Source: a virus
DNA length: 64,000 nt
Direction: 5' to 3' (one strand)
Virus record (IMG/VR): IMGVR_UViG_3300030108_003282
Coordinates: 1-64,000 of that record
Shown: one piece after another, positions 5,586-63,206 of the stretch
Numbering within the stretch: the first letter of the stretch is position 1
Layout of the letters: each line of letters opens with the position of its first letter
The notes under the pieces: model-generated
Told to the model about the DNA's origin: nothing
The model's database searches: none
The model's input: the letters and a program-made list of their open reading frames with translations, nothing else
Made by a program: the position numbers and the translations under genes

Positions 5586-5814
5586 TTGGATATACTTGGC
5601 AAAAGCCATGTGGGAATATTCAGAAAAAAATGAAGGAAGAGTCAGTAGCCTTCTAAAACAACTGATTAAAGAAATAAATAACAATAAGGAGATGATTGAA
5701 AATGACATGGGAAAATATGAGCAGGATGCTACAAGCAACAGACCAATTGACACCGACTCAACAAATAACTCGAATTTCACGGGACTTGGAGACATTCACG
5801 ACGCAGAAGAGTAA
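5572..5814 (+). CDS. hypothetical protein
   Basis: SD-preceded ORF; its tail overlaps the ligase start. Confidence 0.55.
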   Translation: MKKSDWIYLAKAMWEYSEKNEGRVSSLLKQLIKEINNNKEMIENDMGKYEQDATSNRPIDTDSTNNSNFTGLGDIHDAEE

Positions 5815-47095: not shown

Positions 47096-48355
47096 TCAAA
47101 GGTTTCCTCCAACCATTTTATGAATGTCAGCCCAATCCATTTCGGCTAATTCATCCATAGTAGGGAGTTTGATAGAAGACTCTTCTTGAGCCTTTAGGAT
47201 GTTTTCCTTCTCAGCAGTCAAAGACTTGCGAAGTGCGGCAAATTCATCCTTAAGAGAAGCAATTTCGCTTTGAGCATCATATTGAGACTTTGCGAGAATG
47301 TTTTCTCTTTGAGAAGTTTCAGCCTTGAAGCGAGCCTCAAACTGCTTTTGGAGGTTGTCGTAAGCCAACTTCTCTAATTGTTCTTGACGGAAAGCCTCGT
47401 AAGCCTTCTCAATGTTTCCAACAGATAAGTCAAGGGTTTCTAATTCTTCGTTGTTAAATGCCTTAACAACTGGTAAATCAGAAGCCTTTGGTCGGCCTCC
47501 TTCAATAATGATTCTGTCAGCAGGTTCGCCAATTTCAACACCTGCTCCATCAAGAGTAGGAACATAGGCTTTGGCTTCATCATCCATGTATTCGCCCATA
47601 CCCTTCTCTTCATCATCCATCATTTCTTTGTCGTCCTTCATCTTTTCAGACATCATTTTGTCCTTTTCAGACATCATTTTGTCCTTTTCATCCATCAACT
47701 TTTCAGACATCATTTTTTCGTCCTTCATGTCCATGTTTTCTTCTTCTTCCTTTCTTAGCGTATTGACTTCTTCCATAAGAGCGTCAAGTTCTGCCAATGC
47801 TTTTTCAATTCTGGTCATTTTTTTCACCTTTTTTGTTTTTTCTTGCTTTAAAATGTCAAATTTTGCTTCTGGATTAATTCCTTTTTCACAAATAGTGACT
47901 TCATGTAATTCTAACTTTGAAATTTCGTTGTATTCCCCTAATTCATCATGGGTTTTCTTAACTTTCTCTAAAGCCTGTCCTCCAATACTGAAACTTCTTA
48001 ATGAACCTTTTCTAATGCCACGATTAATTTCTTTGGCCTTTTCAATATCATCTCTTAATTTGATTACAACAAAGAATCCTACATCATCAACTTCTGTTTT
48101 GAATAGTCTCCCTGATTTATCTCGGTATGATTCAACAACTTCTCCGACTTGAACATTTGAATGATTTGTCATTACATTTCTAAACTTGGGGTTCTCCATG
48201 TATTTCTTTACCGCTTCTTGAAGGGCTTTAAGTGTGATTAAATCATTTTGCTTATCAACGATTTCAATGCTTGCATATCCTCCAATCATTAAATCGTCTT
48301 GGCTTTTGAGAATCCTGAAATCAGAAGTGTTGTTTCGCATCACCACAGAAGACAT
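47096..48355 (-). CDS. prohead protease fused to scaffold
   Basis: IGGYAS..VDKQND, H...VG, LRSFSIGG, LHEVT.C..GINP; acidic coiled-coil C-terminal half. Confidence 0.92.
   Translation of the reverse strand: MSSVVMRNNTSDFRILKSQDDLMIGGYASIEIVDKQNDLITLKALQEAVKKYMENPKFRNVMTNHSNVQVGEVVESYRDKSGRLFKTEVDDVGFFVVIKLRDDIEKAKEINRGIRKGSLRSFSIGGQALEKVKKTHDELGEYNEISKLELHEVTICEKGINPEAKFDILKQEKTKKVKKMTRIEKALAELDALMEEVNTLRKEEEENMDMKDEKMMSEKLMDEKDKMMSEKDKMMSEKMKDDKEMMDDEEKGMGEYMDDEAKAYVPTLDGAGVEIGEPADRIIIEGGRPKASDLPVVKAFNNEELETLDLSVGNIEKAYEAFRQEQLEKLAYDNLQKQFEARFKAETSQRENILAKSQYDAQSEIASLKDEFAALRKSLTAEKENILKAQEESSIKLPTMDELAEMDWADIHKMVGGNL
47632..47725 (-). repeat. imperfect 21-bp tandem repeat encoding (EKDKMMS)n in the scaffold linker
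   Basis: TTTTCAGACATCATTTT recurs three times. Confidence 0.8.
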
Positions 48356-48385
48356 TCTTCTCAACCCCTACTAACCATTATCCAG

Positions 48386-48393
48386 TATATAAA
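48386..48393 (-). promoter_or_regulatory. putative archaeal TATA box for the protease-capsid operon
   Basis: TTTATATA in the intergenic gap about 30 nt before the start codon. Confidence 0.55.
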
Positions 48394-48400
48394 GAACAAC

Positions 48401-50938
48401 CTATTCTTCGGTAGGAAGGGGTAATTTGTTATACCTATCTTCATAAATATTCCACTTTCCTTCATCCCCTTCCTTATCAGCAGGAGTTTGTTTATATCCA
48501 GTCCATGCAAGCCACATTCTTTGTCCATCTACGTCTAAGACTCTATAATGCATTTTAGTTTCAAACTTGTTGCCTTCTAAGAAATATTCATGATAGCCGT
48601 CCCTTTGAATGCCTAATCTTATCTTTCCAGAATCAATAACTTTTCCCTTAGTTACTGTTTTTGCTACTTCTGCTGGATATTTCCCAGCCGCACCGAATAA
48701 ATCAAAAAGTTCTTCCTCATTCTCGACATTAATTGTCCAAAACATATTTTCAGTTTTAAGTTTGATTGCTAATGTTATATTATCATCTTCTCTCGAATAA
48801 AGTTTGAATTCACCCTCTCTTAACTCAGGCGGTGTTTTATATTCACCTTCGACGGCTTTAATATCTTCTTTTTTAATTTCTTCTTCCTGCATGATTTTAT
48901 CATCATCAGCAACTATTTTATTGTCTTTTTCGCTAATACCGTCTCTAAGAATAGACCATTGTTTAAGTTTTTTCTCATCAGAATCAAGAACCTCTTCATA
49001 TAAACTGGGCTGTTTTTCTTTTAAGAAATTATGTAATTGTTTTGGTGTCTTAGGACCATTCATTTTTAAATGCTGAAAAATAGCAACAGTTAAATCGCTT
49101 TGTTTTGATTTCATAATATCAATTACCTGTTGCTTCCACATATCTAAATCCATTGTAGCATTTCTAGACATTAGATTATCTTCTTCATAGCCATAGATTG
49201 TAAATCCATCTATATCATATTTGATAATAATATTTGCTTCTCCATGAATATGGTCAGTAATTTTTATTCCTTTTGTGAATGCTTCAACATCATAATTAAG
49301 AGATTTCTTAGTGTCTTGAGAAAGTAATTCTAATGTGACTAGTTTATCGGGATGTTCTACTTCGGGAATCTCAATAGGTTTTGCTGAAAACAAACTAAAC
49401 CCGTCTCCCTTCTTTTTGACTTCATCTACCTTTACTCGAATAATATCCCCAACATCTACAGAAATTTTTGTATTGAGTGCTTTACCTACATTCAAATAAT
49501 GTCTTTTCTTTATTTCAACTGCTCCAGTCATTTCTTCATCAACTGGCCCAACACCCACAGTATAAGAAAATAGATTACTTTTTGTTTTCTTCTTATCTAA
49601 AACAATAACATCTAAGTCAACAAACTTCTTCAATTTAATCCATTTTGGATTTTTCTTAGTGCCAATATAATAAGTTGAAGTAGCGTCTTTAATAACTACT
49701 CCTTCAGATGTAGGAATTTGCATCATTTCTTCTGCATACTTCTCAATATCTTTTAAATTATCTGCTTGGCGAGTATCTTTCTTTGATGGATATGCTATCG
49801 CTTCGCTAGATTTAGAGGAATAGTTATTGAATAAAATTGTCATTCGGTTCTCTAATTCTTCGTCTGCCAATGTCTGAGATTCGTGGCGAATAATATCAAA
49901 AACATGGCATCGAAGTTTAGCGTCTTTATATTTCCCTTTGAAGACATGAGCGACGGTATCGGCTCTATGAAGAGGCTCATCATTATTAAAAAGAACCAAT
50001 TCTCCATCTAAAATACAATCACCATACTCTTTTTTCTTTAATTCCTTTACTTGTTCTTTACATTGTTCAGAAATGTCTTTACCATTAAATGAATATATTT
50101 TAACATTGTCATCAATTTTATGCAACTGGACTCTCATCCCGTCGTATTTTTCTTGAACATACCAGTTGCCACTAAACCCTTTTAATTCATTAATATCATC
50201 TACTTCAAAAATTCTATACATGGGTTTATTAGGAATAATAAACTGCGATATGGACTTTTTCTCATCACTCGGAATAGACTTCTCTAATCCGTCTATATCT
50301 TTCAGTTCTTCCCAATCTTCCTCTTCATTTTTAGAAAAGAAGATTAGTTCTAACATATCCATAGCAGCCTTTACTTTCGATTCGACCTTTTTTGAGTCTT
50401 TTCCGTCTCCGTAATGTTCTATAATATAGAGGGCTATGTCGTCCGATTCTAGGTCAAGACCCATAAGACCCTCCGTAATTGTGTCGGGACGCATCCCTTT
50501 AACACTATAAATGTCAGCAGATAGGGCTTTATTATCGTCCCTTAATGCATAATGCACAAATTTAACCATAGTTTCTGGATTATCTAACAATTCTTCAAGA
50601 ACACCGTCCTTGAACATCGTTGCGAAAGGGTCAGCAACGATAGATGAGGAATAGCGAAGAAGTTTTACTTTATCAAACAGTTCTTTTGCTTGTCTTGAAG
50701 AAGGGTCTTTTGCGTCTTTGTCTTCTAAATCCTTTTCATCAATAAAGTTTCTCATCTCTTTTCCTGCGGCATCACTCTCATTATAAGAGTCTATAATCAT
50801 ATCAACCGCTTTACGCCAACGACCCGAATATTCTGTAGGGTCTTGTCTTGCAGATAAATAGGCAACTCTTGTCTTTTCAAATAGACGAAGAATTTCTTGG
50901 GAAGGCTGTTTATCCTTCTCAATAGAACCCAACTTCAT
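48401..50938 (-). CDS. lig: second ATP-dependent DNA ligase (multidomain) in the head module
   Basis: EKYDG, LDGE, FDI, EGVVIK, WIKLK, OB domain; N- and C-terminal extensions. Confidence 0.9.
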   Translation of the reverse strand: MKLGSIEKDKQPSQEILRLFEKTRVAYLSARQDPTEYSGRWRKAVDMIIDSYNESDAAGKEMRNFIDEKDLEDKDAKDPSSRQAKELFDKVKLLRYSSSIVADPFATMFKDGVLEELLDNPETMVKFVHYALRDDNKALSADIYSVKGMRPDTITEGLMGLDLESDDIALYIIEHYGDGKDSKKVESKVKAAMDMLELIFFSKNEEEDWEELKDIDGLEKSIPSDEKKSISQFIIPNKPMYRIFEVDDINELKGFSGNWYVQEKYDGMRVQLHKIDDNVKIYSFNGKDISEQCKEQVKELKKKEYGDCILDGELVLFNNDEPLHRADTVAHVFKGKYKDAKLRCHVFDIIRHESQTLADEELENRMTILFNNYSSKSSEAIAYPSKKDTRQADNLKDIEKYAEEMMQIPTSEGVVIKDATSTYYIGTKKNPKWIKLKKFVDLDVIVLDKKKTKSNLFSYTVGVGPVDEEMTGAVEIKKRHYLNVGKALNTKISVDVGDIIRVKVDEVKKKGDGFSLFSAKPIEIPEVEHPDKLVTLELLSQDTKKSLNYDVEAFTKGIKITDHIHGEANIIIKYDIDGFTIYGYEEDNLMSRNATMDLDMWKQQVIDIMKSKQSDLTVAIFQHLKMNGPKTPKQLHNFLKEKQPSLYEEVLDSDEKKLKQWSILRDGISEKDNKIVADDDKIMQEEEIKKEDIKAVEGEYKTPPELREGEFKLYSREDDNITLAIKLKTENMFWTINVENEEELFDLFGAAGKYPAEVAKTVTKGKVIDSGKIRLGIQRDGYHEYFLEGNKFETKMHYRVLDVDGQRMWLAWTGYKQTPADKEGDEGKWNIYEDRYNKLPLPTEE

Positions 50939-50943
50939 ACAAA

Positions 50944-51480
50944 TCATCTATTTCTTTCGTACTCAGGGTCTAATGTTTCTCCTGAGTATTCGGAATCATA
51001 AAACATAGTTTGTTCAGGAATAGAAGCCAATTCTTTTTCAAGAGCCATTAATTTACGATTGATATTAATGATTTCATTCATCATTTCATTTCGTTCTTCA
51101 GGCTTAGCCATTTTAATCTGTTTAGATAAACCAGTAAGCATAGAAGCAAGACCATCAATTTGACTAATCAACTTAACTCTTTGTTCATGATTCAGAAGAG
51201 GGTTTTCATCCATATCTTCAGGTAGAATAGCCTTAAGCAAACTAACCATCTTTGTTATTTCTCCCGCATAAGCATGAAGAGTATCGGGGCCATCGTTTGA
51301 TTGTGCATTGTAGTTATAATTTTCAGCCTTTGGTCTTTTCAATTTCACCGCTTCTGATTCATCATCCATTGGGTTTCTATTATTATCCATTAAGGACTGA
51401 TAAAGAATTTCTTTGGCTTCTCTCGCTTTTTGAATAATAATACTAATCTGTCTTTCTTCTTTCGTTACTCTTTCAGGCAT
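50944..51480 (-). CDS. head-region helical protein
   Basis: GAGTGA SD, coiled coil. Confidence 0.7.
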   Translation of the reverse strand: MPERVTKEERQISIIIQKAREAKEILYQSLMDNNRNPMDDESEAVKLKRPKAENYNYNAQSNDGPDTLHAYAGEITKMVSLLKAILPEDMDENPLLNHEQRVKLISQIDGLASMLTGLSKQIKMAKPEERNEMMNEIININRKLMALEKELASIPEQTMFYDSEYSGETLDPEYERNR

Positions 51481-51485
51481 TTAAA

Positions 51486-51731
51486 TCACTCCATTTTTGA
51501 AACCATTTTATGAATTTCGGACCAATCCATACTAGAAACATCAGTTGTCGGTAAAGAATCAACTCCACCAACACTATTATCCATAGAAGGGGTTGGACTT
51601 TGAGAAACAACTAAACCTGCTTTCATTAGAAGACTATCCTTTGCATAAATTGTTTTTTCTAATGCTTCCACTTTAGCGGTTAAAGCCTTAATTATTTCTA
51701 ACACATCTTTGTTAATACTCTCTTCTGTCAT
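51486..51731 (-). CDS. mini-scaffold-like protein sharing the scaffold C-terminus
   Basis: coiled coil plus MDWSEIHKMV, versus MDWADIHKMV in the scaffold. Confidence 0.75.
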   Translation of the reverse strand: MTEESINKDVLEIIKALTAKVEALEKTIYAKDSLLMKAGLVVSQSPTPSMDNSVGGVDSLPTTDVSSMDWSEIHKMVSKME

Positions 51732-52093
51732 TTCTTTTCCTCCTTTTTACCAACTGGATAAATTAAATCTCTTAATTGTCTATAAAGAAGTTCGTACTCT
51801 TTACGAAGTTTCGTAGCAGTAGCCACTATATCAATGTTCCTTTCATCCATTGACTTCATTTTCTTATTTAACTTCTTGTCTGATTTGATTAGTTCTAATT
51901 CTCTAAGAGTCTCAATAAGTTCACCTAATTTAGTAAAGTCTTGACCAAAAAATTCTGTGGGTTCTGCGGCTTGAAGTGTCTTTTTCAGTTTTCTTCTTCC
52001 TTTAGTATCTAAAGAGTCAATAAGTTTTTTAGGCTTTTGTTTCTCCTCTTTGAGAACAAAATTATCTCCATCTCCGTAGTAATCCCATGTCAT
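51728..52093 (-). CDS. head-region helical protein
   Basis: ATGA-coupled. Confidence 0.7.
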   Translation of the reverse strand: MTWDYYGDGDNFVLKEEKQKPKKLIDSLDTKGRRKLKKTLQAAEPTEFFGQDFTKLGELIETLRELELIKSDKKLNKKMKSMDERNIDIVATATKLRKEYELLYRQLRDLIYPVGKKEEKK

Positions 52094-53670
52094 TCTTCTT
52101 CCCCCACATCAGAAAGATTTCTCAACTGATTTACAATATCGCCTAATTCATTTGACTTTTCTTGGTATTTGTCAGAAGCATCTTCAAACTCTGTCATTCT
52201 TGCAGCATTAAGAGTAGGGAATCCTTCAAAGAAACCATCTACTAGTCTAGCGTCGGGATTTTCCATCATAAAATCAGTAAATCCTTGAGTAATCGCTCCT
52301 TCGGATTCACGAGTAATTTGTGCCATTTTATTAGATTGTCTTCTTAGATACGAAAGCATATTGATTCCCTTAGTAAATAATTTTTTAACTGGAGTAGATG
52401 GTTCTAATTCTCTGAACATTCCTAAGAATCTTCCAAACGCTTTTATATTTTCATCTTGGTCAAAAGCGTCAATATCTGTCATTAATCTTTCTAATTTTCT
52501 TCTTTCTAAGGCAATCTCTCTTTCTAATTCTTGAGTTGCTTCGGCAACATATTTGTCTTTATTCTCGCTTATATCTTTAAATGTGGACATCAGAGACTTG
52601 ACATCCTCGACACTTCCTGAGCCAATAACACGCTTCAAAGATTCATTTAATTTTTGCAACTTTCTTCCAACAATCTTATCTTTATCTTTTAACAGTTTCT
52701 CTAATTCACCTATCTTTTCTTCTAAAAATATCTTAGAAGAAGCAATTTGCCTATTGTTAGCCTGAACTGCTTGAACTTTTCTTAATGCTCTTTCATATTG
52801 AACATTTACCCCTAAATCTACATCTTTCTTTTTTGCTCTTTCCATCATGGATAGCCTTTCTCTTTTGACTCTTCTTCTATCAACAAGATTTCTTGGCTTT
52901 CTTTTATATTTTTGAGTATGTAATAATTCAAAGACCTTTAAGAAATCAATTGGCTCTTTTCCTTCAACCTCAAAATCTAAATCCAAAATTCCTCTAAGAG
53001 TTCTAAATATTCTATTAGCATCAATATCTTTTCCTGTTCTTTCTTCTGTTCTTTGGGTTCTGCTTAAATTAAATTTTTTACCAGTTAAAATCCCATCGAC
53101 CAAAAGTTTATCATATTTATCGTTTAGATAATCAGGATTCTTCTTAATCATTGTCAGCAAAGTAAGTAATTTACTAGATTTAGCGGCAGTTGCCCCTAAT
53201 TTAAGATAATCTTTCATAGCACCTCTAACAACAGTTTTGCCGTCAACAACTTGAACTCTTGCATTTTCGGCAATATCTAAAAGAATATCTTTTTGATAAT
53301 TTAATTCAGATAATTCTTTGTAAGCATCTTTTTCTTCAGATTGCCTACTAATTCTTGAACCCAATGCCTCTTCTTCTAATCTTGCTTCTCTTTCTTCTTC
53401 GGTAGAGAGAATCTCTTCCTCGGTTGTTAAATCAGACTCTCCTTCTTCAAGGCTTCTCCTTGCATCTTCTCTTGCTTCTTCTTCATTCTTCGCAATAGTA
53501 ATATATTTACGATATTCAATCATATTTTGAGAAGTAAGGTTGTTTATTAAAGAAACCTTGATTAAAGAAGCATCAGCGCCCTCATTAACTAATGAGGTAG
53601 TTTCTTCGTCTAAATTAGCCTTTCTTAAAATGTTAAGCAAAGATTTATCTTTGGCTAATTCATAATACAT
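52090..53670 (-). CDS. long coiled-coil protein
   Basis: charged heptads; GAGGTGA SD. Confidence 0.75.
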   Translation of the reverse strand: MYYELAKDKSLLNILRKANLDEETTSLVNEGADASLIKVSLINNLTSQNMIEYRKYITIAKNEEEAREDARRSLEEGESDLTTEEEILSTEEEREARLEEEALGSRISRQSEEKDAYKELSELNYQKDILLDIAENARVQVVDGKTVVRGAMKDYLKLGATAAKSSKLLTLLTMIKKNPDYLNDKYDKLLVDGILTGKKFNLSRTQRTEERTGKDIDANRIFRTLRGILDLDFEVEGKEPIDFLKVFELLHTQKYKRKPRNLVDRRRVKRERLSMMERAKKKDVDLGVNVQYERALRKVQAVQANNRQIASSKIFLEEKIGELEKLLKDKDKIVGRKLQKLNESLKRVIGSGSVEDVKSLMSTFKDISENKDKYVAEATQELEREIALERRKLERLMTDIDAFDQDENIKAFGRFLGMFRELEPSTPVKKLFTKGINMLSYLRRQSNKMAQITRESEGAITQGFTDFMMENPDARLVDGFFEGFPTLNAARMTEFEDASDKYQEKSNELGDIVNQLRNLSDVGEEE

Positions 53671-53679
53671 TTAATCACC

Positions 53680-53904
53680 TCAAAAAGGAATGTTTTCTTT
53701 CTTTCCTCTTTTTTTAGGAGGTAATAGAATAACATCGGGATTATCTGCCGATGATGGCCTAGCCTTGTGAGAAGTATCTGGTGGTAATCCAACAGACATA
53801 TCTCTATTCTTCTTTACCTTATTATTCTCTTGTGCTGTCATAGCCTTAACTTTGGCTAATTCTTTTGTTAGTCTTCTTTGTTTTTGGTGTAAATCTTCGC
53901 TCAT
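53680..53904 (-). CDS. small basic protein
   Basis: GGAGG SD, coupled. Confidence 0.65.
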   Translation of the reverse strand: MSEDLHQKQRRLTKELAKVKAMTAQENNKVKKNRDMSVGLPPDTSHKARPSSADNPDVILLPPKKRGKKENIPF

Positions 53905-54215
53905 ATTTTTGCCTCCATTAAATTTCCTCGTGTTCTTTCTAAAATTTTAATAAGTTCTTCTTTTGACATTTGACCAATTTTATCCATAACGGCATCCATT
54001 AAATCTTCTCTTGTCATTTCAGCCAATTCATCCATTTCTTCTCCAAACATAGAATCAAAGGTAGGGTCATCCATTCTTCCAGAAGCAGGAGAAGGTTTTC
54101 CTCCTGCTACCTTAATAGGTGGTTTTCTTCTTTCAGGACTTCTACTTCTTCTTTCGGGGTCAAGTTCCCGAATAGGTCTTACTCTTGCCTTTATGATGTT
54201 TTCCCAACTATTCAT
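53901..54215 (-). CDS. small protein with N-terminal WENIIK tag
   Basis: starts MNSWENIIKAR directly after the portal stop. Confidence 0.7.
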   Translation of the reverse strand: MNSWENIIKARVRPIRELDPERRSRSPERRKPPIKVAGGKPSPASGRMDDPTFDSMFGEEMDELAEMTREDLMDAVMDKIGQMSKEELIKILERTRGNLMEAKI

Positions 54216-54216
54216 A

Positions 54217-55857
54217 TTAACCAACCCTCCTTTCTGTTCTTCTGTCATTGTTTTGATTTCCAGCGTCTAACGGCAATCCCGACATTCGCTTATCGGGTGC
54301 TACGCTCATGGAGGGTTTATTTCTTGTGGTCGCAGGATTCTCCTGTGGCTTGCTCCCGCCTTGAAGTGCTTGTTCTTGCATTTGTCCCAATTGTGAAGCA
54401 TCAATGTTTGTTCCTGCATACGGGTCAGTTTGAGCAGTTCCCTCTCCCTTTTCACCCTCTGGTTTTTGTTCGGGTTCTGGCTTCTTAAAAGTAAATTGAC
54501 CATCTTCATCCATATCTACTTCAAATCCTAGATTTTTAGTTGATGCAGCAATATTAACTTCAATCTCACGCTTACGAAGAACAGCAATTTCATCTTCTTC
54601 TTCGCTTGGAGGCAACTTTAAGTTCCAATCTGTAATACCAAATTGTTTTACAAGGAATGGAAAAACGTAATTATTATAGACAGTTTGTGCTTTTTGAACT
54701 GCTCTATTCGTTACAAGAATTTGCATACCTTCATTGTTTAATCCACCGCTAGTAGTGTTATCAGCCATAAAGACTTTACTAACTCCATAAAAGGCTGATA
54801 TTCTATCTCTTAAATCATCTTTAACAGAAACATAATCCATTTCTTTAAGGCTATCCATGAACTTAATCCACTCAACTCCGCCTTTACCACCTTCTGCTTC
54901 AATTCCCATAACAGGAATAAAATGAGGGTCTGCCTCCATTTTTTCTTTTACAGAACGCCAAAAAGACCTCATTGAATCCATGTTTCTTGTTTGGACTGCC
55001 AAAAGACCTCTTGGCATACGACTCTTAGTATAGGAAGAATTAACATAGTTTTCCATAGCAATAAGAGTCATGATATTATTAAAGAGAGTAATTACAGGAG
55101 ACATACCATATAACCTTGAAGGGCTGTATTTACTAAAATGTAATACTTCTCCTTTTAAGAAATATTGGTCGTCTCCTTTTACCCTATTAACATAATGAAT
55201 AGGGAATAAATTACTACCACAAATTTCGCACTTTTCATGTGGGTCTTTGTGAATAATGTTGCGATGATTTACACAAGTAAAGCCTTTTGTTCCTCTTTGT
55301 CCATTTTCATCGCTATAAATAAACATAGTAACTGGGTCGCCTCGATAAACTTCTTTAACTCGATGCATTCTAATTTTACCATTACCATCAATAAAATATT
55401 CTTTAACAAGAACAATATAAGCATCATCCATAATATTTAAATCATCTTCAAGTTCCTGTAAAACATCAATAAACAACTGTTCAGACTTATTTACATAACC
55501 CTCGATGAACTTCTCAGCGTATTCCAATTGTTTAACATCGGGAATCTTAAGGTCGGTGCTTCCACAACGAGAGCATTCTTGAACAGGTCTTTTGTGTTCT
55601 TTACTACAATTATTACATCGTGCTTCATATGCTTTTTCCCAAACATAACCTCTTCTAAATACTTCTTGTTTTAGTTGAGTAATACAAGTTCTAGCGATTA
55701 CGGATTGATTAACGATATTATAAATAATTGGGCCTGTCATTAAGTGGTGGGTTTCTCTTTCTTGAATACCCATATTGTAGACTTTTCTATCAGCAGGTTT
55801 GGGAGTTTGTCTCCTAAATAGGTTAGTAATACTAAATCGTCTTTTTTCTTCAACCAT
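54217..55857 (-). CDS. portal protein with zinc-ribbon insertions
   Basis: D...DDAY, LYGMSP, PRGLL, KEMDY...ISAFYGV; CNNC/CSRC and CVNH/CEIC. Confidence 0.9.
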   Translation of the reverse strand: MVEEKRRFSITNLFRRQTPKPADRKVYNMGIQERETHHLMTGPIIYNIVNQSVIARTCITQLKQEVFRRGYVWEKAYEARCNNCSKEHKRPVQECSRCGSTDLKIPDVKQLEYAEKFIEGYVNKSEQLFIDVLQELEDDLNIMDDAYIVLVKEYFIDGNGKIRMHRVKEVYRGDPVTMFIYSDENGQRGTKGFTCVNHRNIIHKDPHEKCEICGSNLFPIHYVNRVKGDDQYFLKGEVLHFSKYSPSRLYGMSPVITLFNNIMTLIAMENYVNSSYTKSRMPRGLLAVQTRNMDSMRSFWRSVKEKMEADPHFIPVMGIEAEGGKGGVEWIKFMDSLKEMDYVSVKDDLRDRISAFYGVSKVFMADNTTSGGLNNEGMQILVTNRAVQKAQTVYNNYVFPFLVKQFGITDWNLKLPPSEEEDEIAVLRKREIEVNIAASTKNLGFEVDMDEDGQFTFKKPEPEQKPEGEKGEGTAQTDPYAGTNIDASQLGQMQEQALQGGSKPQENPATTRNKPSMSVAPDKRMSGLPLDAGNQNNDRRTERRVG

Positions 55858-55910
55858 AAATCACACCCCCTTTTTTATCCCTACGCTATCCTTGCCTATC
55901 AACGCTTCGG

Positions 55911-56165
55911 TCAGGGTTGGCCCCTATCCTCGATGTCATATCTTTCGTTGCTTGAACGAAGCATTTCGTCTAAAATACCCTTTAAATACGTTGGTCTATT
56001 TTCTGGTTTTTTCATTCCAGACTTTAAATAATAGATGACCATTCTTTTATTTATGTCTGCTAAATTAGTGTATCGGACATATTTTTTCCTATCTCTTGGT
56101 AATTCGTCATTTATGATACCGTCTTTGAGTTCTTTCCAACTCATTCTTTTTTTAGCAATCACCAT
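55911..56165 (-). CDS. basic hypothetical protein
   Basis: ORF before portal; start uncertain (MVIAKK or MSWKELK). Confidence 0.55.
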   Translation of the reverse strand: MVIAKKRMSWKELKDGIINDELPRDRKKYVRYTNLADINKRMVIYYLKSGMKKPENRPTYLKGILDEMLRSSNERYDIEDRGQP

Positions 56166-56326
56166 GCTTGCCCCCAATATAAAGCGAATTCTGTTTGACA
56201 GGTCATACATTTTTCTCTTTGACTAACGGCCTTTTTGCATTTACGACAGACCGTAGCATAACGAATGCGTTTAGGTAATTTTTTTCTTACTGTGTGTTTA
56301 AACACTTCATAATGATGGCGTGGCAT
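56159..56326 (-). CDS. 55-aa basic zinc-finger protein (not in track)
   Basis: MPRHHYEVFK...CRKC...CMTC; abuts the upstream stop. Confidence 0.6.
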   Translation of the reverse strand: MPRHHYEVFKHTVRKKLPKRIRYATVCRKCKKAVSQREKCMTCQTEFALYWGQAW

Positions 56327-56617
56327 TTAGCAATTCCACCTTCTTCTAGCGGCTTTTGCTTTCTCGCTGTAAGTGCCATCTTTTCTCTTAAATCCTCTTG
56401 ACCTTGCACAAAAACTCTTTCTTCTTTTTGCTGCCTTACTTCCAGGTTTTAATTTACTAGGCTTAGTAGTAACTGGTGGCTTTAAATTAGAACCTTGTTC
56501 ACGCTTAAACTTAGCACGACCTTTAGCACTTAATCCACCCGTTCTTGCGTGAATCTTTTTGTTATAGCCTTTAAATGGCTTCTTTTTCTTTTTAAGAATA
56601 TCTTGCCAATCATTCAT
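56327..56617 (-). CDS. basic protein, DUF6321-like, WQDILK tag
   Basis: GGLSAKGR...NLKPPV...RRKSFCAR...RRWNC. Confidence 0.75.
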   Translation of the reverse strand: MNDWQDILKKKKKPFKGYNKKIHARTGGLSAKGRAKFKREQGSNLKPPVTTKPSKLKPGSKAAKRRKSFCARSRGFKRKDGTYSEKAKAARRRWNC

Positions 56618-57185
56618 ATTTATCACCTATCATGTAGCCTAATTTTTTTCCTGCTTCAATATCGCTTGGGTAGTGGCTTCCCATTTGTATTCTTGATAAA
56701 GAAATTTTGTCAGCCATTTCTTTTAATTCTTTCTTCTTATCTGGATATTTTTTTCCTAAAACTCTTTCTAATCCATGAGCAAGCATTGAATGACCGCTTG
56801 GGAAAGCAGGAGTATCATCTGTTTTTGTTTTTGTTGTTTTTATTTTATCAGATATTTGATGAGGACGTGGCCTTTGGTATTTCATTTTAAGTGTCATGGC
56901 ATAATAATTAATATCTTTCATGAAGTCCATGTAATTATTTTTGTCCTCGCCTACAATTTTAAACATTTCAACATCGGGTTTTAAGTCAGAATCTTTCATT
57001 TGCTTAGGAGTTATTCTTTTCTTTTTCATTGTTGCTATCACAGAAGGTATTTCTTTTTCTTCTTGGGGATAACTTAATTTAGGAATATCTATTTTCATCT
57101 TTGGGCTTCTTTCTAATATTTTCTTCTTATCTTCCGAAAGTGTTCCTTCCCACTTTCTTTTCTTAAGAATAGAAAACCAATTCAT
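56610..57185 (-). CDS. PAP2/haloperoxidase-superfamily phosphatase, WFSILK tag
   Basis: K-x6-RP (KMKYQRPRP), PSGH, SR-x5-H-x3-D. Confidence 0.9.
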   Translation of the reverse strand: MNWFSILKKRKWEGTLSEDKKKILERSPKMKIDIPKLSYPQEEKEIPSVIATMKKKRITPKQMKDSDLKPDVEMFKIVGEDKNNYMDFMKDINYYAMTLKMKYQRPRPHQISDKIKTTKTKTDDTPAFPSGHSMLAHGLERVLGKKYPDKKKELKEMADKISLSRIQMGSHYPSDIEAGKKLGYMIGDKYE

Positions 57186-57189
57186 TTTA

Positions 57190-57567
57190 TCACTTTGGTT
57201 TATGTGTGTAAATGTCTCCATCTTTGTGCATAAAGATTTTACCTTCCTTTTCTAATTTAGACAAGGCTCTTTTAATTTCAGATTCTTCTCCAAATTGTTT
57301 TAGATTTTTCATCCCCAATGCTCCGCCTTCTTTTTTGATTTCAGCAAGAATTTTTGCTTCAATGTCTTGTTTAACCATTCTTCCAACCACAGGTCTTTGC
57401 CCTACACCATATTTTTGTTTTAGTTCGCTAATCAAACGACTTACATTAATCATAGGGCTATTTCTTCTATCAAACTCTCTTATTGCTTCATCAGGCAATC
57501 CTCTTAGAGCAGGATAAGTTTGCCTTAGTCCTTTAATATCTAATTTCAATATATCTTTCCAAGTCAT
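57190..57567 (-). CDS. two-domain protein with C-terminal wHTH, WKDILK tag
   Basis: IKRALSKLEKEGKIFMHKDG wHTH. Confidence 0.7.
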   Translation of the reverse strand: MTWKDILKLDIKGLRQTYPALRGLPDEAIREFDRRNSPMINVSRLISELKQKYGVGQRPVVGRMVKQDIEAKILAEIKKEGGALGMKNLKQFGEESEIKRALSKLEKEGKIFMHKDGDIYTHKPK

Positions 57568-58022
57568 GCTCTCATCCTCTTTGTTTTTCTTTTACTAGAT
57601 TCTTTTCTTGCTAGTGCTACCTTATGTGCTGAATTTAATCTTTTCTTTGTTTCAGGGTCTTTGGCTCTCTTTGCTGCTACCCTTGCTCTTTGTTCAACTA
57701 AATTGATAATTTGTGATTGTCTCTTGTGTGGTTTTGATTTAAATGAAGAACTAGAAAAAGTTTCTCTTACATCTTTTGCAGTTTTAAACTTTACAGGGAC
57801 AGTATCTTTCGGGTTTTCATCAGTATATAATCTTCTTGTAGAACCCTTCGGCTTCTTCCCAGTCCCCTTCTTCGGGTCTTTCTTTAAAATATTTTTCCAA
57901 CTCTTTCCAACATATCCTGAAGCATAAGCGGCTGCTGCTTGTCTTTCGGCATCTTTACGATTTTTATAGACTTTACCCTTACTACCCCATTTATAGCCGC
58001 CTTTTACCTTTCTAATAGGCAT
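57564..58022 (-). CDS. basic two-module protein with internal WKNILK
   Basis: MPIRKVKGGYKWG module, then KGTGKKPKGS.RRLYTDENPKDTV module. Confidence 0.75.
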   Translation of the reverse strand: MPIRKVKGGYKWGSKGKVYKNRKDAERQAAAAYASGYVGKSWKNILKKDPKKGTGKKPKGSTRRLYTDENPKDTVPVKFKTAKDVRETFSSSSFKSKPHKRQSQIINLVEQRARVAAKRAKDPETKKRLNSAHKVALARKESSKRKTKRMRA

Positions 58023-58027
58023 AAGAA

Positions 58028-58312
58028 TCACTTTTGACTAAATTTCTTTCCTGTTGGAACGTGCTGAATACCCTTTTTACGGCCTTTTCTTTTCTTTGAG
58101 TCTTGATACCGAAGAGTTTTCTTATCTGTTCTCTTATAGGTCGCTCTTGGCATATATCTTCCTTTAGTTTTGGGTTTTGGTTTCTTGCCTTTATCTTTTG
58201 CTCTATGCTGTTCAGCACTCCCCCAATCCTCATCAGTCCAAGTAGATAAATCTCTTTGCCTTTTTGATTTGGCTTTGAGAATATTACGCCAATTAATTTT
58301 TATATCCGCCAC
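58028..58312 (-). CDS. basic protein, DUF5872 C-half-like, WRNILK tag (GTG or ATT start)
   Basis: QRDLSTWTDEDW...GRYMP...KRKG...QHV. Confidence 0.65.
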   Translation of the reverse strand: MADIKINWRNILKAKSKRQRDLSTWTDEDWGSAEQHRAKDKGKKPKPKTKGRYMPRATYKRTDKKTLRYQDSKKRKGRKKGIQHVPTGKKFSQK

Positions 58313-58502
58313 CAGCCCTCTTATACGCCTGAGCCAACATCTGCGCTTTTCTTGCAGACCATTGACCTGCCGCACCACCTTTTGTTCCTCGTTTAATTCT
58401 ATTAAAAATTCTTTTTCTCATTCCAGGTTTTGTATAGTTTCCAGACTGATTTACAGTAGATTTCTTCTTTTTCTTTTTCTTTAAAATATCCTGCCATTCC
58501 AT
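58293..58502 (-). CDS. basic protein, DUF5872 N-half-like, WQDILK tag
   Basis: NYTKPGMR...GGAAGQWSARKAQML...GGGY. Confidence 0.75.
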   Translation of the reverse strand: MEWQDILKKKKKKKSTVNQSGNYTKPGMRKRIFNRIKRGTKGGAAGQWSARKAQMLAQAYKRAGGGYKN

Positions 58503-58519
58503 TTTTTCACTTCCTTAAA

Positions 58520-60154
58520 TTAATCTTGTGTTTTTTCAATAGTTCCCATTTCTTCAATATAAAGTTTAAGATATTTTTGCATTCTTCCAATAGCATAACT
58601 GTAATTTTGTCCAGATTTATACATCAAGTGTGCGGTTTCAAGTTCTCTGATAATTTTTGCAAGTCTATCACTAATAGCAGTGGTATCTAGTTTTCTATCA
58701 AGAATTTTTTTAGTTGAAGAAATAATGTGGTCTACCTCTTTATCACCTAAACCTTTTTTATCTCTTAAATACGGAGTTGAACTTTTAGTAATCTTAATAA
58801 TTGTTCCAATATTTTCTAAAGAGTCCATAACCGACATTTTACAATTGTCTTTGTATTTTTGAATATCATCTAAATAGATACCTTCTTTCAACCAATCAAA
58901 ACCCACATGGTCTTTATGATTCTCCCACTTCATTAACTTAAAAATTTCATCACAACGGCTTTTATACCAGTCGGCTTTCTTATATGACTTCTTCATGCGA
59001 ATCAACTCAAGCAATAACTCAGCGTTGCCTTTCTTAAGACGAAAATGAGGAAGACAATTCTTTAACAGTTTAGAAACATCATCCTGTGAATAAAAATTTA
59101 ATCTATTAATTAAACGGGTTGCTTGTGGAGATTTCTGGTCTAAATGCATTCTGCCGAAACCAAGAGACTTATGCATTTCTTGCATAAAAGCCTTACCTCT
59201 TTCTCCTGTTGCGACTAATCCTACTCTTGGATTCATGTTGCGGTCTAATGTAATATATCCATCTGAATCAATAAAAGCAGCAGTATAAGCCCAAATATTT
59301 TTCTTAATCATAGAAGGGACTTTGTAATACGAACCCTTTACAGAACTAATTTCTAATTTTTTGACTGCCTTTGAAATTGAATTAGGGCTTGCTGCTTTAT
59401 GAAGAGAGGAAGGCATTCTTTCGTGTATTCCTGAAGCAGTAATTCCTGGATTTTCACAAACCATTTTTAAAATAAAGTCCTCTGTTCTTTGTTTCTTTGA
59501 TTTGGTAAGAGACTGGTCTGTAATCTTAGAAATAGCATTTCTAAAATCCTTTTTAGCAGAACTCATAGTTTTGTGCAGATTAGAATATTCTTTTCCATAG
59601 GCCATTCCAGTTTGCTCTATTTCAGCCTCCCAGTATTTACAAAGAGCATCAACAGTTTCTCTTCTTAATTCTGAACTTTTCATCTTATGTAGTTTGGACA
59701 AATCTTTCTCATTATACCTCATTTTTCTTAGAGGAACCTCATAGTCGTTTAACCAAGTAATAGAACCGATGCAATTATTTAAATGTTCAGTATAAGCATC
59801 AATCATCGTATCAATGGCTTTTGACATTTTAATACGATGTTCCCCCTTCAACGCTCTCCGAGACTTTCTCATTTTTCTAACTAAATCAGGAATAGTGTGT
59901 TCTTGAACAATATATTCATTTGGAAAAGAAGTGAGTCTCTTTCTTGCATCGCTAGCATTGATGTTAAAAGCAGTAGATAATTTAACTATTTCTTCATGCT
60001 CAGACATAACATAGGTATTGTTGAAGATACTCTTTAATTCTGTATCTAGTTGTTCCTCTATGCTATCTTTAACTTCGGCTTCTTCTTCATCTAATTCGGC
60101 TAAACGGTTCATTTGTTCAGCCGCTTGACGGTATTTATCTGCCTGTTCTGTCAT
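58520..60154 (-). CDS. multidomain protein: helical + wHTH + LAGLIDADG endonuclease domain
   Basis: ENPGITASGI wHTH; YTAAFIDSDGYI; LPHFRLKK. Confidence 0.8.
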   Translation of the reverse strand: MTEQADKYRQAAEQMNRLAELDEEEAEVKDSIEEQLDTELKSIFNNTYVMSEHEEIVKLSTAFNINASDARKRLTSFPNEYIVQEHTIPDLVRKMRKSRRALKGEHRIKMSKAIDTMIDAYTEHLNNCIGSITWLNDYEVPLRKMRYNEKDLSKLHKMKSSELRRETVDALCKYWEAEIEQTGMAYGKEYSNLHKTMSSAKKDFRNAISKITDQSLTKSKKQRTEDFILKMVCENPGITASGIHERMPSSLHKAASPNSISKAVKKLEISSVKGSYYKVPSMIKKNIWAYTAAFIDSDGYITLDRNMNPRVGLVATGERGKAFMQEMHKSLGFGRMHLDQKSPQATRLINRLNFYSQDDVSKLLKNCLPHFRLKKGNAELLLELIRMKKSYKKADWYKSRCDEIFKLMKWENHKDHVGFDWLKEGIYLDDIQKYKDNCKMSVMDSLENIGTIIKITKSSTPYLRDKKGLGDKEVDHIISSTKKILDRKLDTTAISDRLAKIIRELETAHLMYKSGQNYSYAIGRMQKYLKLYIEEMGTIEKTQD

Positions 60155-60163
60155 ATAAATACC

Positions 60164-61594
60164 TCAAAAGTTTAAGCCTATGGACGAAGAAAAGCCCTGT
60201 TTTGGTCGTTGCGGAGCATCGTTAAACAGCCCTAAATCATCGAGCAGTATGAAGTTATCGCTGGCCTGATAAGTAGCGGCATTTGCTAAAGCAAGACTCA
60301 TCACCATATCGTCATGCGCCCCAATACCTTCAAATTTTCCACGCTCGGTAATAGCAAACATTGATAATTCTTCAATAAGCAAAGAAGAAACCTTTCTACT
60401 TTCTTCATTCCCGTATGGGAAGTGAATCTTTCCATTTTCAAGAGACATTTGTAAATTAAGAATAATCTCTTGTTTCTTTCTTCTAGTTGTATCAAAGTCA
60501 TGAACATTTACATCAGCAACTTGACGAAGTTCTTGAGTAAATGATTTAGCAAAAGTATTTGTTTCAAACAAAATAACTTCGGGTCTAAAGACTTGATTTA
60601 ATAATTTTACCTTTTGAATATTTTCACGGAACTGAACGTTCTTTGCTCGGTCTACGTACACAATTGATTTATTTTCATTTTCATCTACCTCAAGAACAGT
60701 AATCACATTGTAATCCCCATCAGTAGAAATAGCGGGGTCCACTCCTATGAAATATTTATATCCTTCACGCTTTAATGGTTTCAATACTAAATCTTTGTTC
60801 TTAGCATTATCTAAATGTTCGGGACTGAATAAAGAAGTTCCTGTTGAAATAGGCACACACATATATTCTCTTGTAAACATTAATGAACCGACTTCTGCCT
60901 TACGAGCCATTAACGCCTCATAGTTCCATCGGTCAGGCCACAACGGTTCGTTTAGTGCATTTAAACAGGGGTATGTTCTAACAGTATAAGCAGCATTTTC
61001 GGATAATTGCTGGTAAATATCCGTATAACTGAAAGGTGTTCCAATAACACGTAAAGATGCGGTATGGTGAAGTGTTGGAATCATATCCCCATAAAACCAG
61101 TCAGTGACTTTTTGAATACCAGTCATACTAAACTCTTTCAAAGGGTCATCAATAACAATCTCTTGAGGGTGAAGCCCACGAATCTGTGAACCAACCGACC
61201 TTTCAAGGATTTGGTTTCCATTGGTTAATGTAATATTCCCAATAGCCCAACCTCTTGCGGGTTTAAATTTCTTGAGCATTGGGTGAGTAAACATCTTATC
61301 AATGTCTCTCATGTGAACCAAAGTCTGTTTTTGGTTAGAAGAAATATAAAGCATTTGATATGGAGGCTCTTCAAAGATTAATTTCCACACAACCCATGAA
61401 TGCATAAATACAGATTTTCCGTGGTCTCTTGAACAGATAATTACAGTTCTTTGAGTAGTGTTCATTAACTCATGCCATTCCTGTATGTATGAAGGAAAAT
61501 CAAAACCTAATACATTTTGAAAAAAATAAGGGAACGAGTTTTTGGATAACTGCATATCCATCTCATGTTCAAAATTAAAGGCTTCTAATTCCAT
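60164..61594 (-). CDS. terL: terminase large subunit
   Basis: SRDHGKS, IVIDD, IGTP, GVDPA, ETN, HDDMVMSLALA. Confidence 0.95.
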   Translation of the reverse strand: MELEAFNFEHEMDMQLSKNSFPYFFQNVLGFDFPSYIQEWHELMNTTQRTVIICSRDHGKSVFMHSWVVWKLIFEEPPYQMLYISSNQKQTLVHMRDIDKMFTHPMLKKFKPARGWAIGNITLTNGNQILERSVGSQIRGLHPQEIVIDDPLKEFSMTGIQKVTDWFYGDMIPTLHHTASLRVIGTPFSYTDIYQQLSENAAYTVRTYPCLNALNEPLWPDRWNYEALMARKAEVGSLMFTREYMCVPISTGTSLFSPEHLDNAKNKDLVLKPLKREGYKYFIGVDPAISTDGDYNVITVLEVDENENKSIVYVDRAKNVQFRENIQKVKLLNQVFRPEVILFETNTFAKSFTQELRQVADVNVHDFDTTRRKKQEIILNLQMSLENGKIHFPYGNEESRKVSSLLIEELSMFAITERGKFEGIGAHDDMVMSLALANAATYQASDNFILLDDLGLFNDAPQRPKQGFSSSIGLNF

Positions 61595-61598
61595 ATGA

Positions 61599-63206
61599 CT
61601 ATCTCCTTAATAATTGTTTCCATAACATTCTTTCAAGGGATTCTCTTTGTCCTCCCATAATGTCTTTCTTTCCTCTTTCTGTTGCTCTACCAAGTTGATT
61701 TAATCTGTCTTTTAAAGACTGAATATGCTTGATTCTTTTTTCAAGAAATGTTTCTAAATACTTTTTCTCTTCGTTTAACCTAATTCTATATTTATTCGTT
61801 TCTTTTTCTTTATCTTTTCCTGTGTATTCATTCGCAAATTGTTCTACCATTGGTTCGATATTTTCTAATTGTTTAAGTCTTTTTCTTGCACTTTCTATGT
61901 TAAACTTTCTTCTGACTTTCCCTTGAGAAGTATTGACCATTCTATCAGTAACTTGGTCATAGTCTGTCTGTATTCTATCTATGAGTTTTTGTCTAATGTC
62001 AATGATTTCTTTTTGAGGATTTTTATCATAATACTCTCTTTGCTTTCTGTTTTTTTCTCTTCTCTCTTCTATCTCTTTAGCCCTTTCTTGGCTTTCCTTT
62101 TTTCTTCTTTCTTCTTTAATTCTTTTTTCTTCTCTATCTATTGTATCTTGGTAAGAATCACCCATAAGATGGCCCTCTTTTATTTCATCTACAAAGATAT
62201 TATGAAATTTATATTTTTTTGAAGGATATCCCATTGGGTGACTTCTTATTGAATCAAAAACATAAATTTGTTTTGGTTTTTCATTTAAAAAATATTGCTT
62301 AATTTTTGGGTTTGACTCTAATTCTTCCTTTCCCCTATAGGTTCCTTGCTGTCTTTGAATCGTTTCAAAAGTAATATAAGAATAATCTTCAGAATCATCA
62401 TTAATATAAATCCAGCCATATCTGCCATAAAATGGATTAGCATCTAATTCAGAAGCAATTTCTTCCATTTTTTCAGTTGAGTAATCAGGATGTTCTTTGA
62501 ATCTTGCATTTACCATTACTGAGTAGTGAGGTCTATACATTATATTATATCCAGAACTGTATTTTATCGGGTTATCATTATCCTTTGGAAAGCGACTGAT
62601 TAATTTATTTCCATCAATGTCTTCGGCATCTTCAAAAGTATTATCGGGCAAGATTTTGAGAAGATTAAACCATGTCGGCATAGGGTCGTCAAGATAAACA
62701 CACTTCGCAAACTCGCCTTCGCCACGAATGGGCCGAATAGCCATCCTATCAGGATATTTGGACAACCAAGCACTTAAAACATCAGGTGGCAATAATTTAC
62801 TCATTTGCCCCCAATTTGGACTATCTGGAAAAGACCATCCATTCTTTTTTGCGTTAGCAATCCAACGAGCATTATCTCCGTCTCTATGTCCAAAAGCAGC
62901 AACTAATGGTTTTGAAGGATTTAACTGCGGTTCTCTTGCATCTTGTAATGCTCGACTATTTCCACCAATTTGTCTTCCTTCAGCAGTAGCATACATTCCC
63001 CCAACAACGGTATGTGAAGGGTGTTCTTTGAAACCAACGGTTGCTATTGCTCTATTATTATCATCAACACGAATAAGCCAACTATCTAATTCATAAATGC
63101 CAGATTCTAAATCAGCCCTGCGAGTATAGGGGTCGTCAGGATTATCCTGAGCAAACCTACTTTTCATATTTTCATATGAAAAAATTGCGGGGAGAACTTT
63201 AGTCAT
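61599..63206 (-). CDS. modular protein: GNAT-like N-domain, WFNLLK tag, variable and coiled-coil region
   Basis: IATVG...VGGMYA..EGRQIG...KKNGW resembles a GNAT fold; ends LWKQLLRR. Confidence 0.6.
   Translation of the reverse strand: MTKVLPAIFSYENMKSRFAQDNPDDPYTRRADLESGIYELDSWLIRVDDNNRAIATVGFKEHPSHTVVGGMYATAEGRQIGGNSRALQDAREPQLNPSKPLVAAFGHRDGDNARWIANAKKNGWSFPDSPNWGQMSKLLPPDVLSAWLSKYPDRMAIRPIRGEGEFAKCVYLDDPMPTWFNLLKILPDNTFEDAEDIDGNKLISRFPKDNDNPIKYSSGYNIMYRPHYSVMVNARFKEHPDYSTEKMEEIASELDANPFYGRYGWIYINDDSEDYSYITFETIQRQQGTYRGKEELESNPKIKQYFLNEKPKQIYVFDSIRSHPMGYPSKKYKFHNIFVDEIKEGHLMGDSYQDTIDREEKRIKEERRKKESQERAKEIEERREKNRKQREYYDKNPQKEIIDIRQKLIDRIQTDYDQVTDRMVNTSQGKVRRKFNIESARKRLKQLENIEPMVEQFANEYTGKDKEKETNKYRIRLNEEKKYLETFLEKRIKHIQSLKDRLNQLGRATERGKKDIMGGQRESLERMLWKQLLRR

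Follow-up and report, generated by a model that had tools for sequence, protein, structure and literature searches.

The 64,000-nucleotide window analyzed here (positions 1 to 64,000 of the IMG/VR virus record IMGVR_UViG_3300030108_003282, which make up the first two thirds of one viral contig of 94,926 bp) codes for a series of otherwise unrelated proteins that share a short peptide with the consensus M-[STN]-W-[KEQF]-[DEN]-[IV]-[LI]-K, mostly at their N-termini. This peptide is a real portable tag, carried in related viruses by a fast-changing set of unrelated protein bodies that form at least 98 families. It resembles the C-terminal tail of the prohead protease-scaffold protein encoded in the same block of genes, and we put it at an even chance that the eight-residue tag is a capsid-addressing peptide which loads late proteins into the virus head. 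The gene content of the contig matches that of the magroviruses of Marine Group II archaea, whose polymerase is split and whose structural module includes genes for a ligase and a homing endonuclease (Philosof et al. 2017, PMC5434244); the source is a magrovirus-like archaeal tailed virus.

When the whole contig was scanned with the strict pattern W-x-x-[IL]-[LIH]-K, 12 matches were recovered in the 33 open reading frames (ORFs) of the head block (45-72 kb), as against none in the 20 ORFs of the tail block and none in the 89 remaining ORFs. Shuffling the residues of the head block 1000 times gave a mean of 0.17 matches and a maximum of 2, in agreement with the prediction of a first-pass annotation of the window that the motif would be commoner here than in shuffled sequence. 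The plus strand of the window has no strict match in any frame, and the one extra match, at 61939, falls in a non-coding frame and is a chance occurrence. The shuffles and the strand and frame controls together rule out a chance origin of the motif. Each peptide named in the first-pass annotation was recovered in frame from the minus strand at the place it gave, including the ends of the protease-scaffold (W codon at 47134) and of an 81-residue ORF (W codon at 51524) and the looser forms LWKQLLRR-stop, MSWKELK and DWEELK. Its set of about nine tagged proteins is too small: at least six further N-terminal tags lie outside the window at 65-72 kb of the contig in the same operon, namely MSWFEQLK (on a 751-residue protein), MSWQTILK, MSWFDILK, MSWRDVVLK, MSWRDIIRK and MWKEDIRK. 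With degenerate forms included, about 18 of the roughly 140 ORFs of the genome bear the tag or the tail. The N-terminal tags start directly behind the stop codon of the upstream gene or overlap it, and those of the window are thus true N-termini. A 515-residue protein of the replication block, 5696-7243 (+), may start MTWENMSRML, which is tag-like over five residues, lacks the I-L-K and is probably a chance resemblance. Further along the contig, a 388-residue protein (69173-70339, minus strand) and its homologues in loci L245 and L247 have a conserved ...ISKMWQxxLWR tail, here MWQQLLWRD, which is reminiscent of the tag and has another ending.

Across 213 distinct tags the tryptophan is invariant and the lysine is found in 210. 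The conservation ends sharply after this lysine, and the residues behind it are not conserved; two positions past it there is a mild excess of Asp or Glu (30% versus a background of 16%). In 214 non-identical copies the isoleucine is specified by ATA, ATT or ATC, the leucine by all six of its codons and the lysine by AAA and AAG at the background ratio, while the only feature upstream is a purine-rich run like a ribosome-binding site. Since synonymous codons vary freely within the tag, selection acts on it as a peptide and not as DNA, and the same variety of codons rules out a repeat maintained at the DNA level. The PCNA-binding peptides, namely the PIP box Q-x-x-[LIM]-x-x-[FY]-[FY] and the APIM [KR]-[FYW]-[LIVA]-[LIVA]-[KR], were considered and rejected: the tag has neither the Gln at position 1 nor the aromatic pair, the spacing from Trp to the aliphatic residues differs as well, and the tags lie outside the replication module.

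The tag is conserved in relatives of this virus. Among the first 80 of 240 related loci that were gathered from IMG/VR with three protease-scaffold queries, the motif has 232 matches on the coding strand and 1 on the opposite strand. On their coding strand, the 240 loci together contain 407 copies of a core pattern, W-x-x-[IV]-[LI]-K, and in 352 of these (86%) a methionine stands no more than three residues before the tryptophan, with a median distance of seven codons from the in-frame upstream stop. The positional enrichment proposed as a check in the first-pass annotation takes the form of a concentration directly behind the start codon. Of the remaining occurrences, most begin at GTG or TTG start codons and a few are genuinely internal; three are found at the extreme C-terminus of a large protein. 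Such placement at the N-terminus, internally and at the C-terminus is what a docking peptide would show, and it does not suit a signal for initiation or for the N-end. In five near-complete relatives (at least 93% complete, from four lineages) there are 7-12 strict tags per genome, of which 43 out of 44 lie on the late strand; the reversed pattern, taken as a control, gave 0.

Clustering of the 258 complete tagged ORFs of the first 160 loci, with the first ten residues ignored, yields 98 body families, which rules out paralogy of whole proteins as the source of the shared peptide. The tagged ORFs have a median length of 114 residues; the families divide into 31 basic, 23 acidic and 44 neutral ones, and the only Pfam matches among them are to DUF6321, PAP2, DUF1540 and a zinc-ribbon family. 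Four of the tagged proteins of the window are extremely basic, with isoelectric points (pI) of 10.8-11.4. The first-pass annotation had named a PAP2 phosphatase and a GNAT protein among the cargo: the former is supported by a significant Pfam match, whereas Pfam searches of the tagged proteins of the window brought up no GNAT domain. The tag opens nearly all PAP2 homologues of more than about 44% identity, while the more distant ones have unrelated or hydrophobic N-termini. Judged from these homologues, the tag was evidently added to a captured PAP2 enzyme, because its distant relatives lack it. All 26 orthologues of the 104-residue protein keep a variant of the tag on bodies that diverge down to about 30% identity; the DUF6321 orthologues have varied tags and are in some cases fused behind other modules; and those of the 125-residue protein keep the tag on an N-terminal half that is otherwise shuffled, the winged-helix Pfam matches of this protein being below the cut-off. 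The NWRNILK tag, which lies one base behind the upstream stop codon, is conserved in L011, L070, L245 and L247.

Moreover, modules recombine exactly at the tag. A 40-residue module precedes the tag and a basic body in the window, and the tag and PAP2 in L003 and L005, while the same basic body begins directly at the tag in L005, L007 and L016. KSWKNILK (W at 57899), which the first-pass annotation took to mark a domain boundary, lies between module and body in the window. This module, KGGYxWGSKG...AxxQAxAAYASGY, and a related ending, ...AQAYKRAGGGY, recur before tags on differing bodies (57564-58031 and 58293-58502 in the window, 592-1281 in L003/L005), and in other metagenomic homologues PAP2 follows modules of a similar kind, ...WPSAYASGALV...; it looks like a small mobile domain. 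Where genes are fused in frame, the tag is lost in two loci (L006, L027) and an inner tag is kept in about eight other fusions, numbers that are anecdotal.

The location of the tagged genes is also labile, with tagged cassettes in differing slots of the late operon from one relative to another. The cluster of small tagged genes as a whole lies between the endonuclease and the portal genes in the window and upstream of the terminase gene in L245 and L247, and the relatives have a hot spot for tags just beyond the gene for the major capsid protein (MCP), 4-5 kb downstream of where the protease starts. The absence of the motif from the replication and tail arms, which the first-pass annotation had noted, holds for this genome with 0 matches and fails in the relatives, where a tag is found once among the tail genes. 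Because relatives have tags past the MCP gene and this one among the tail genes, we assign the tag to the late operon and not strictly to the head region. The hot spot (L029:7511-7972, L102:7511-8047 and L137) is a variable slot after a gene ending in ...NDKGLLII, occupied by different tagged genes in each relative. One tagged family of this slot has an H-E-x-x-H motif; its atlas look-ups returned IrrE/M78/ArdC-like metallopeptidases (scores of 0.90-0.92, TM ~0.4), and another family returned an Arr-type ADP-ribosyltransferase (0.83), all of them weak matches below the line of reliability.

A second class of the motif, M-[DS]-W-x-[DE]-[IV]-[HN], is formed by the tail of the protease-scaffold and of the 81-residue protein, and its conservation reaches far outside this clade. 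The assignment of the protease-scaffold to the S78 proteases is secure (Pfam Peptidase_S78, PF04586, E value 2.2e-10, 41.4 bits against a curated cut-off of 21), and it has 558 relatives in IMG/VR. Its tail, M[DE]W[SAN][DE]IHKM[VA], is near-invariant in 80 relatives in which the flanking sequences vary, and the corresponding tail of the 81-residue protein is conserved in 52 orthologues. These two proteins have only their last 20 residues in common, 12 of them identical. When 1.8 billion representative proteins were searched, S78 protease-scaffolds as distant as about 35% identity proved to end in [ML]-[SD]-W-x-[DE]-[IV]-[HNE]-x-[LM], often followed by Gly-Gly and one or two more residues. As these distant proteins keep it, the tail is an old feature of the protease-scaffold family, and the wide conservation of W-x-[DE]-[IV] among S78 protease-scaffolds points to a general capsid-docking motif. 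A further search for more distant protease-scaffolds (P0012) returned no viral loci. The N-terminal tag looks like a derivative of this tail, with which it shares a core of Met, a small residue, Trp, any residue, an acidic residue and Ile or Val. A bridging form is found in the L245 and L247 homologues of the 77-residue protein, which begin with MSWRELH[KR], the tail form placed at an N-terminus. The idea that the tags mimic the scaffold, put forward in the first-pass annotation, is thus favored by the common core M-x-W-x-[DE]-[IV] and by the bridging MSWRELHK, while the failure of tags and tails to co-vary (see below) speaks against mimicry in the strict sense.

The MCP has an N-terminal arm with a conserved Y-I-N-T-I-x-D-L-E-x-x-T-Y-G, a variable linker and the sequence N-x-L-L-K (residues 26-30, nucleotides 46995-47009). 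In 41 MCPs, down to 50% identity, K30 is invariant and L28 and L29 are at least 90% conserved. In an AlphaFold2 model (mean pLDDT, the predicted local distance difference test, of 63) residues 1-72 are of low confidence and the arm is disordered, which is compatible with an exposed LLK site and proves nothing further. It is plausible from the sequences that this L-L-K is a maturation site which has [IL]-L-K in common with the tag. A conserved F-x-I-L-K near the N-terminus of the protease and a K-F-D-I-L-K at the end of its catalytic domain were considered as cleavage sites and set aside, as they are probably structural strands of the S78 fold; a search of the protease for the domain-boundary pattern found nothing.

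On these grounds we propose that the tag, M-[STN]-W-x-[DEN]-[IV]-[LI]-K, serves as a portable peptide for docking; it probably forms two turns of an amphipathic helix, one face of which presents W, I and L. Scaffolds usually contact the shell through their C-termini, and the tail of the scaffold and of the 81-residue helper would be expected to make this contact here. The tagged late proteins would be addressed to the assembling prohead by docking either to the shell from within or to the core made of scaffold, so that the capsid protein and the protease-scaffold would together be the receptor of the tag, and they would become enclosed in the capsid. The Leu-Lys end of the tag, which matches the L-L-K of the MCP, may be cut by the S78 maturation protease, freeing both the cargo and the N-terminal arm, and the enclosed proteins would probably be delivered with the DNA to the next host cell. 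We advance a bolder version tentatively, judging it somewhat short of even: magroviruses would load a large and rapidly changing arsenal through a single eight-residue code, which copies the capsid-binding tail of the scaffold and ends in a maturation-protease site, and would inject it with the DNA. Such an arsenal may number about 100 families in the sampled loci and include a phosphatase, possible metallopeptidases and DNA-coating basic proteins.

A number of observations weigh against the capsid-addressing proposal. Covariation of tail and N-terminal tag was sought across the lineages and not found: the tails read IHK, INA, INN, VHL or VND, while the tags have ILK everywhere. With tails that change at positions 5-6 and tags that do not, the picture of one pocket with a co-evolving ligand is unsupported. 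The lysine of the tail is not conserved in other lineages, and cleavage after it cannot therefore be general for the tail. In lineage 3a the tags are rare beside the head genes and are sited further upstream of the terminase, and the tag is absent from HCTV-1, a related haloarchaeal virus. Each genome has 10-18 tagged proteins, including ones of 280 and 751 residues, which is much cargo for a capsid holding about 95 kb. Neutralization of DNA charge cannot be the general role, because about a quarter of the tagged families are acidic. The two peptides of the 535-residue protein that the first-pass annotation had counted as tags, PTWFNLLK and LWKQLLRR, are conserved in none of its homologues of 48-53% identity. 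To our knowledge there is neither a cultured magrovirus nor a virion proteome of one. The DWEELK of the ligase was likewise dropped from the set of tags: the form [DE]-W-x-[DE]-L-[KV] at about residue 211 is loosely conserved and misfits the tag consensus.

The main competitor of the capsid-addressing proposal is that the tag docks the late proteins on some other common partner without their being encapsidated. Such a partner could be a late protein of the virus (the small GTPase module, the terminase, or the chaperonin that some magrovirus groups have) or a hub of the host, for instance a chaperone, a protease or the membrane. In favor of this, tags and scaffold tail do not co-vary, many tagged families are acidic or neutral with no obvious role in the virion, and in the relatives tags are also found in the slot past the MCP gene, 4-5 kb from the start of the protease, and in one case among the tail genes. 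Yet the tags are restricted to the late strand and concentrated around the terminase, portal and protease genes, they share their core with the tail of the scaffold, and no candidate gene for another reader was identified; we therefore regard this alternative as rather unlikely, if by no means negligible. Less probable still is that the tag is mainly a pro-peptide, that is, a site [IV]-[LI]-K recognized by the S78 protease and cut after the lysine, which times activation or release and splits fused modules without localizing anything. The sharp end of conservation after K, the invariant [LI]LK in the flexible arm of the MCP, the tags at the module junctions of fused proteins and the common cleavage motif of phage T4 are all in keeping with it. 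But a cleavage motif confined to P3-P1 leaves unexplained the invariant Trp and its Met-x-Trp spacing, the site in the MCP has no Trp, and, because the activity of a prohead protease is normally confined to the prohead, substrates of this kind would have to get there anyway.

Two further explanations we regard as far less probable. Purely by conjecture, the lysine of the tag could be the acceptor of a ubiquitin-like modification, made by a ThiF/E1-like enzyme with a small protein ending in Gly-Gly, or of a link to the scaffold tails that end in this way. The components exist: a 185-residue ThiF/E1-like protein (PF00899, E value 3.9e-17; contig 93092-93649, plus strand) is found in all five near-complete relatives, a 68-residue protein (contig 86470-86676, plus strand) ends in AIVGGNC here and in VGG plus 1-2 residues in four of the five, the scaffold tails likewise end in MVGGNL (window 47096-47116), MVGGV or MAGGY, and the Asp/Glu enrichment lies just past the lysine. 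Against this, the gene for the ThiF protein and the small gene ending in GG lie on the opposite strand, outside the late part of the genome, and tails ending in GG also occur in distant protease-scaffolds; moreover, the co-occurrence of ThiF and tag is uninformative, since all the genomes have both. We judge this very improbable. Scarcely credible, and already largely refuted by codon usage, is the possibility that the repeat acts as nucleic acid, either as an enhancer of translation initiation or as a recombination junction between cassettes, with the peptide as a by-product. The coincidence of module boundaries with the tag and the tight coupling of tagged genes to their upstream genes, with Shine-Dalgarno-like purine runs, would suit such a role, but the synonymous codons vary freely in the tag, the peptide also occurs internally and at C-termini, and the opposite strand and the other frames are without the motif.

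The features of the window that bear on the capsid-addressing proposal are collected in the table. The genes of the plus strand at 0-24 kb include those for RFC-, PCNA- and split PolB-like proteins, and a single block on the minus strand, 24.4-72.4 kb, contains the tail genes, the MCP, the S78 protease-scaffold, an ATP-dependent ligase, the portal, a LAGLIDADG-type gene and the large terminase. The only cultured relatives of the MCP and the protease are in haloarchaeal tailed viruses, at about 25-33% identity. A ligase among head genes was also seen in magroviruses by Philosof et al. (PMC5434244), and the order of genes around the terminase is that of the magrovirus structural module described there. 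Between two of the basic proteins (58274-58300), the gene for the 69-residue protein ends with ...GGGYKN-TAA, which is followed by one base and then the TGG of the next tag. The protein specified next would need a GTG start 8 codons upstream, or a frameshift joining it to the upstream protein, a case comparable to the naturally fused 57564-58031.

Table. Tagged proteins, tailed proteins and neighboring head genes of the window (window coordinates).
Feature	Coordinates	Strand	Tag, tail or domain
Major capsid protein, HK97-like	45732..47084	-	Pfam SU10_MCP; ~25% identity to haloarchaeal virus MCPs
Prohead protease-scaffold fusion, 422 residues	47096..48364	-	S78 domain at residues 22-181, Met/Lys/Glu-rich coiled region, conserved C-terminal tail
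Tail of protease-scaffold	47111..47140	-	MDWADIHKMV, then GGNL and stop
ATP-dependent DNA ligase domain protein, 848 residues	48401-50947		PF01068, E 3e-31; among head genes
81-residue protein	51486..51731	-	Helical N-terminal part, linker, scaffold-type tail MDWSEIHKMV 51501-51530
Tagged 104-residue protein	53901..54215	-	MNSWENIIK 54189-54215; start follows portal stop codon
Portal protein	54217..55857	-	Pfam Phage_portal, E 1.3e-11; flanked by tagged genes
77-residue protein	55911..56144	-	Degenerate tag MSWKELK 56124-56144
Tagged DUF6321 protein, 96 residues, pI 11.4	56327..56617	-	MNDWQDILK 56591-56617; Pfam DUF6321, E 3.8e-16
Tagged soluble PAP2-type phosphatase, 191 residues	56610..57185	-	MNWFSILK 57162-57185; Pfam PAP2, E 1.7e-12
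Tagged 125-residue protein	57190..57567	-	MTWKDILK 57544-57567
Very basic protein, pI 10.9	57564..58031	-	40-residue KGGYxWG...AYASGY module, internal tag SWKNILK 57882-57902, Lys-rich body
Very basic protein, pI 10.8	58028..58312	-	NWRNILK 58274-58294 (W 58291), 8 residues after probable GTG start
Tagged 69-residue basic protein, pI 11.2	58293..58502	-	MEWQDILK 58479-58502
Large terminase subunit	60164..61594	-	Pfam Terminase_6C, E 4.8e-4, just under cut-off
535-residue protein upstream of large terminase	61599..63206	-	No Pfam match; doubtful tags, internal PTWFNLLK 62655-62675 and C-terminal LWKQLLRR 61602-61625

In the surface ocean, magroviruses belong to the most abundant viruses of archaea, and the majority of their genes are unannotated. 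The tag would give a common fate to roughly one gene in eight and pick out likely virion-delivered effectors, which would be candidates for host takeover and for counter-defense against Marine Group II archaea. Our literature search found no paper linking magroviruses to capsid targeting, internal proteins or a common N-terminal motif. If the capsid-addressing proposal is right, this would, as far as our search goes, be the first code for capsid cargo to be reported from a virus of archaea, and the peptide would give a simple means of loading proteins of choice into an HK97-type shell.

The closest functional parallel is in phage T4, where a 10-residue N-terminal sequence common to unrelated internal proteins suffices for encapsidation and ends in a protease motif, the set of tagged proteins varying among relatives (PMC9026906). 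Like this capsid-targeting sequence (CTS) of IPI-III and Alt (PMC9026906), the magrovirus tag is an N-terminal peptide of about 8-10 residues on unrelated, partly very basic proteins associated with head genes. The tagged set again varies between relatives, the conservation ends as sharply after the Lys as that of the T4 peptide does at its protease motif, and the tagged genes belong to the head block or late gene set, as judged by strand and position. In contrast, there is no similarity between MKTYQEFIAE of T4 and MSWxDILK, the magrovirus host is archaeal, and the magrovirus protease is of the HK97-type S78 family, whereas gp21 of T4 is of another. That other family is S77 in the MEROPS classification. 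The magrovirus tag, unlike that of T4, is found on at least 98 families, occurs also internally and C-terminally, and resembles the tail of the virus's own scaffold. Because both the consensus and the protease family differ, the magrovirus tag is on present comparison an analogue of the T4 CTS and not a member of that system.

The sharing of a peptide by a scaffold and a second small protein has its own precedent in phage 80alpha, whose scaffold and the SaPI1 protein CpmB have a common C-terminal RIIK tail that binds one site of the capsid protein, for which both compete (PMC6893505). Here too the scaffold and a second small helical protein (of 81 residues) end in the same conserved peptide, and the motif has two aliphatic residues followed by Lys. 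Unlike CpmB, which is a hijacking factor of a satellite, the second protein is a core gene product of the virus itself; the tail is MDWxDIHKMV, and a related peptide is placed N-terminally on dozens of other proteins. In HK97, the C-terminal segment of the protease outside its catalytic domain is reportedly thought (by Duda, Oh and Hendrix in 2013) to carry the enzyme into the prohead. The magrovirus enzyme is of the same S78 family, with a tail conserved across distant S78 protease-scaffolds; the HK97 protease differs in having no separate scaffold domain, and we know of no set of other HK97 proteins that copies the tail of its protease. Encapsulins resemble the proposed system in that a short peptide on diverse cargo directs it into an HK97-fold shell, but they are without portal, terminase and DNA, and their peptides are usually C-terminal and rich in Gly, Ser and Leu. 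An encapsulin cargo-loading system is accordingly excluded here, as portal, terminase and tail genes are present and the tag differs in sequence and position. By analogy, the magrovirus tag probably works like the T4 CTS and the 80alpha/CpmB tail, homologous to neither, on a much larger scale and in an archaeal virus.

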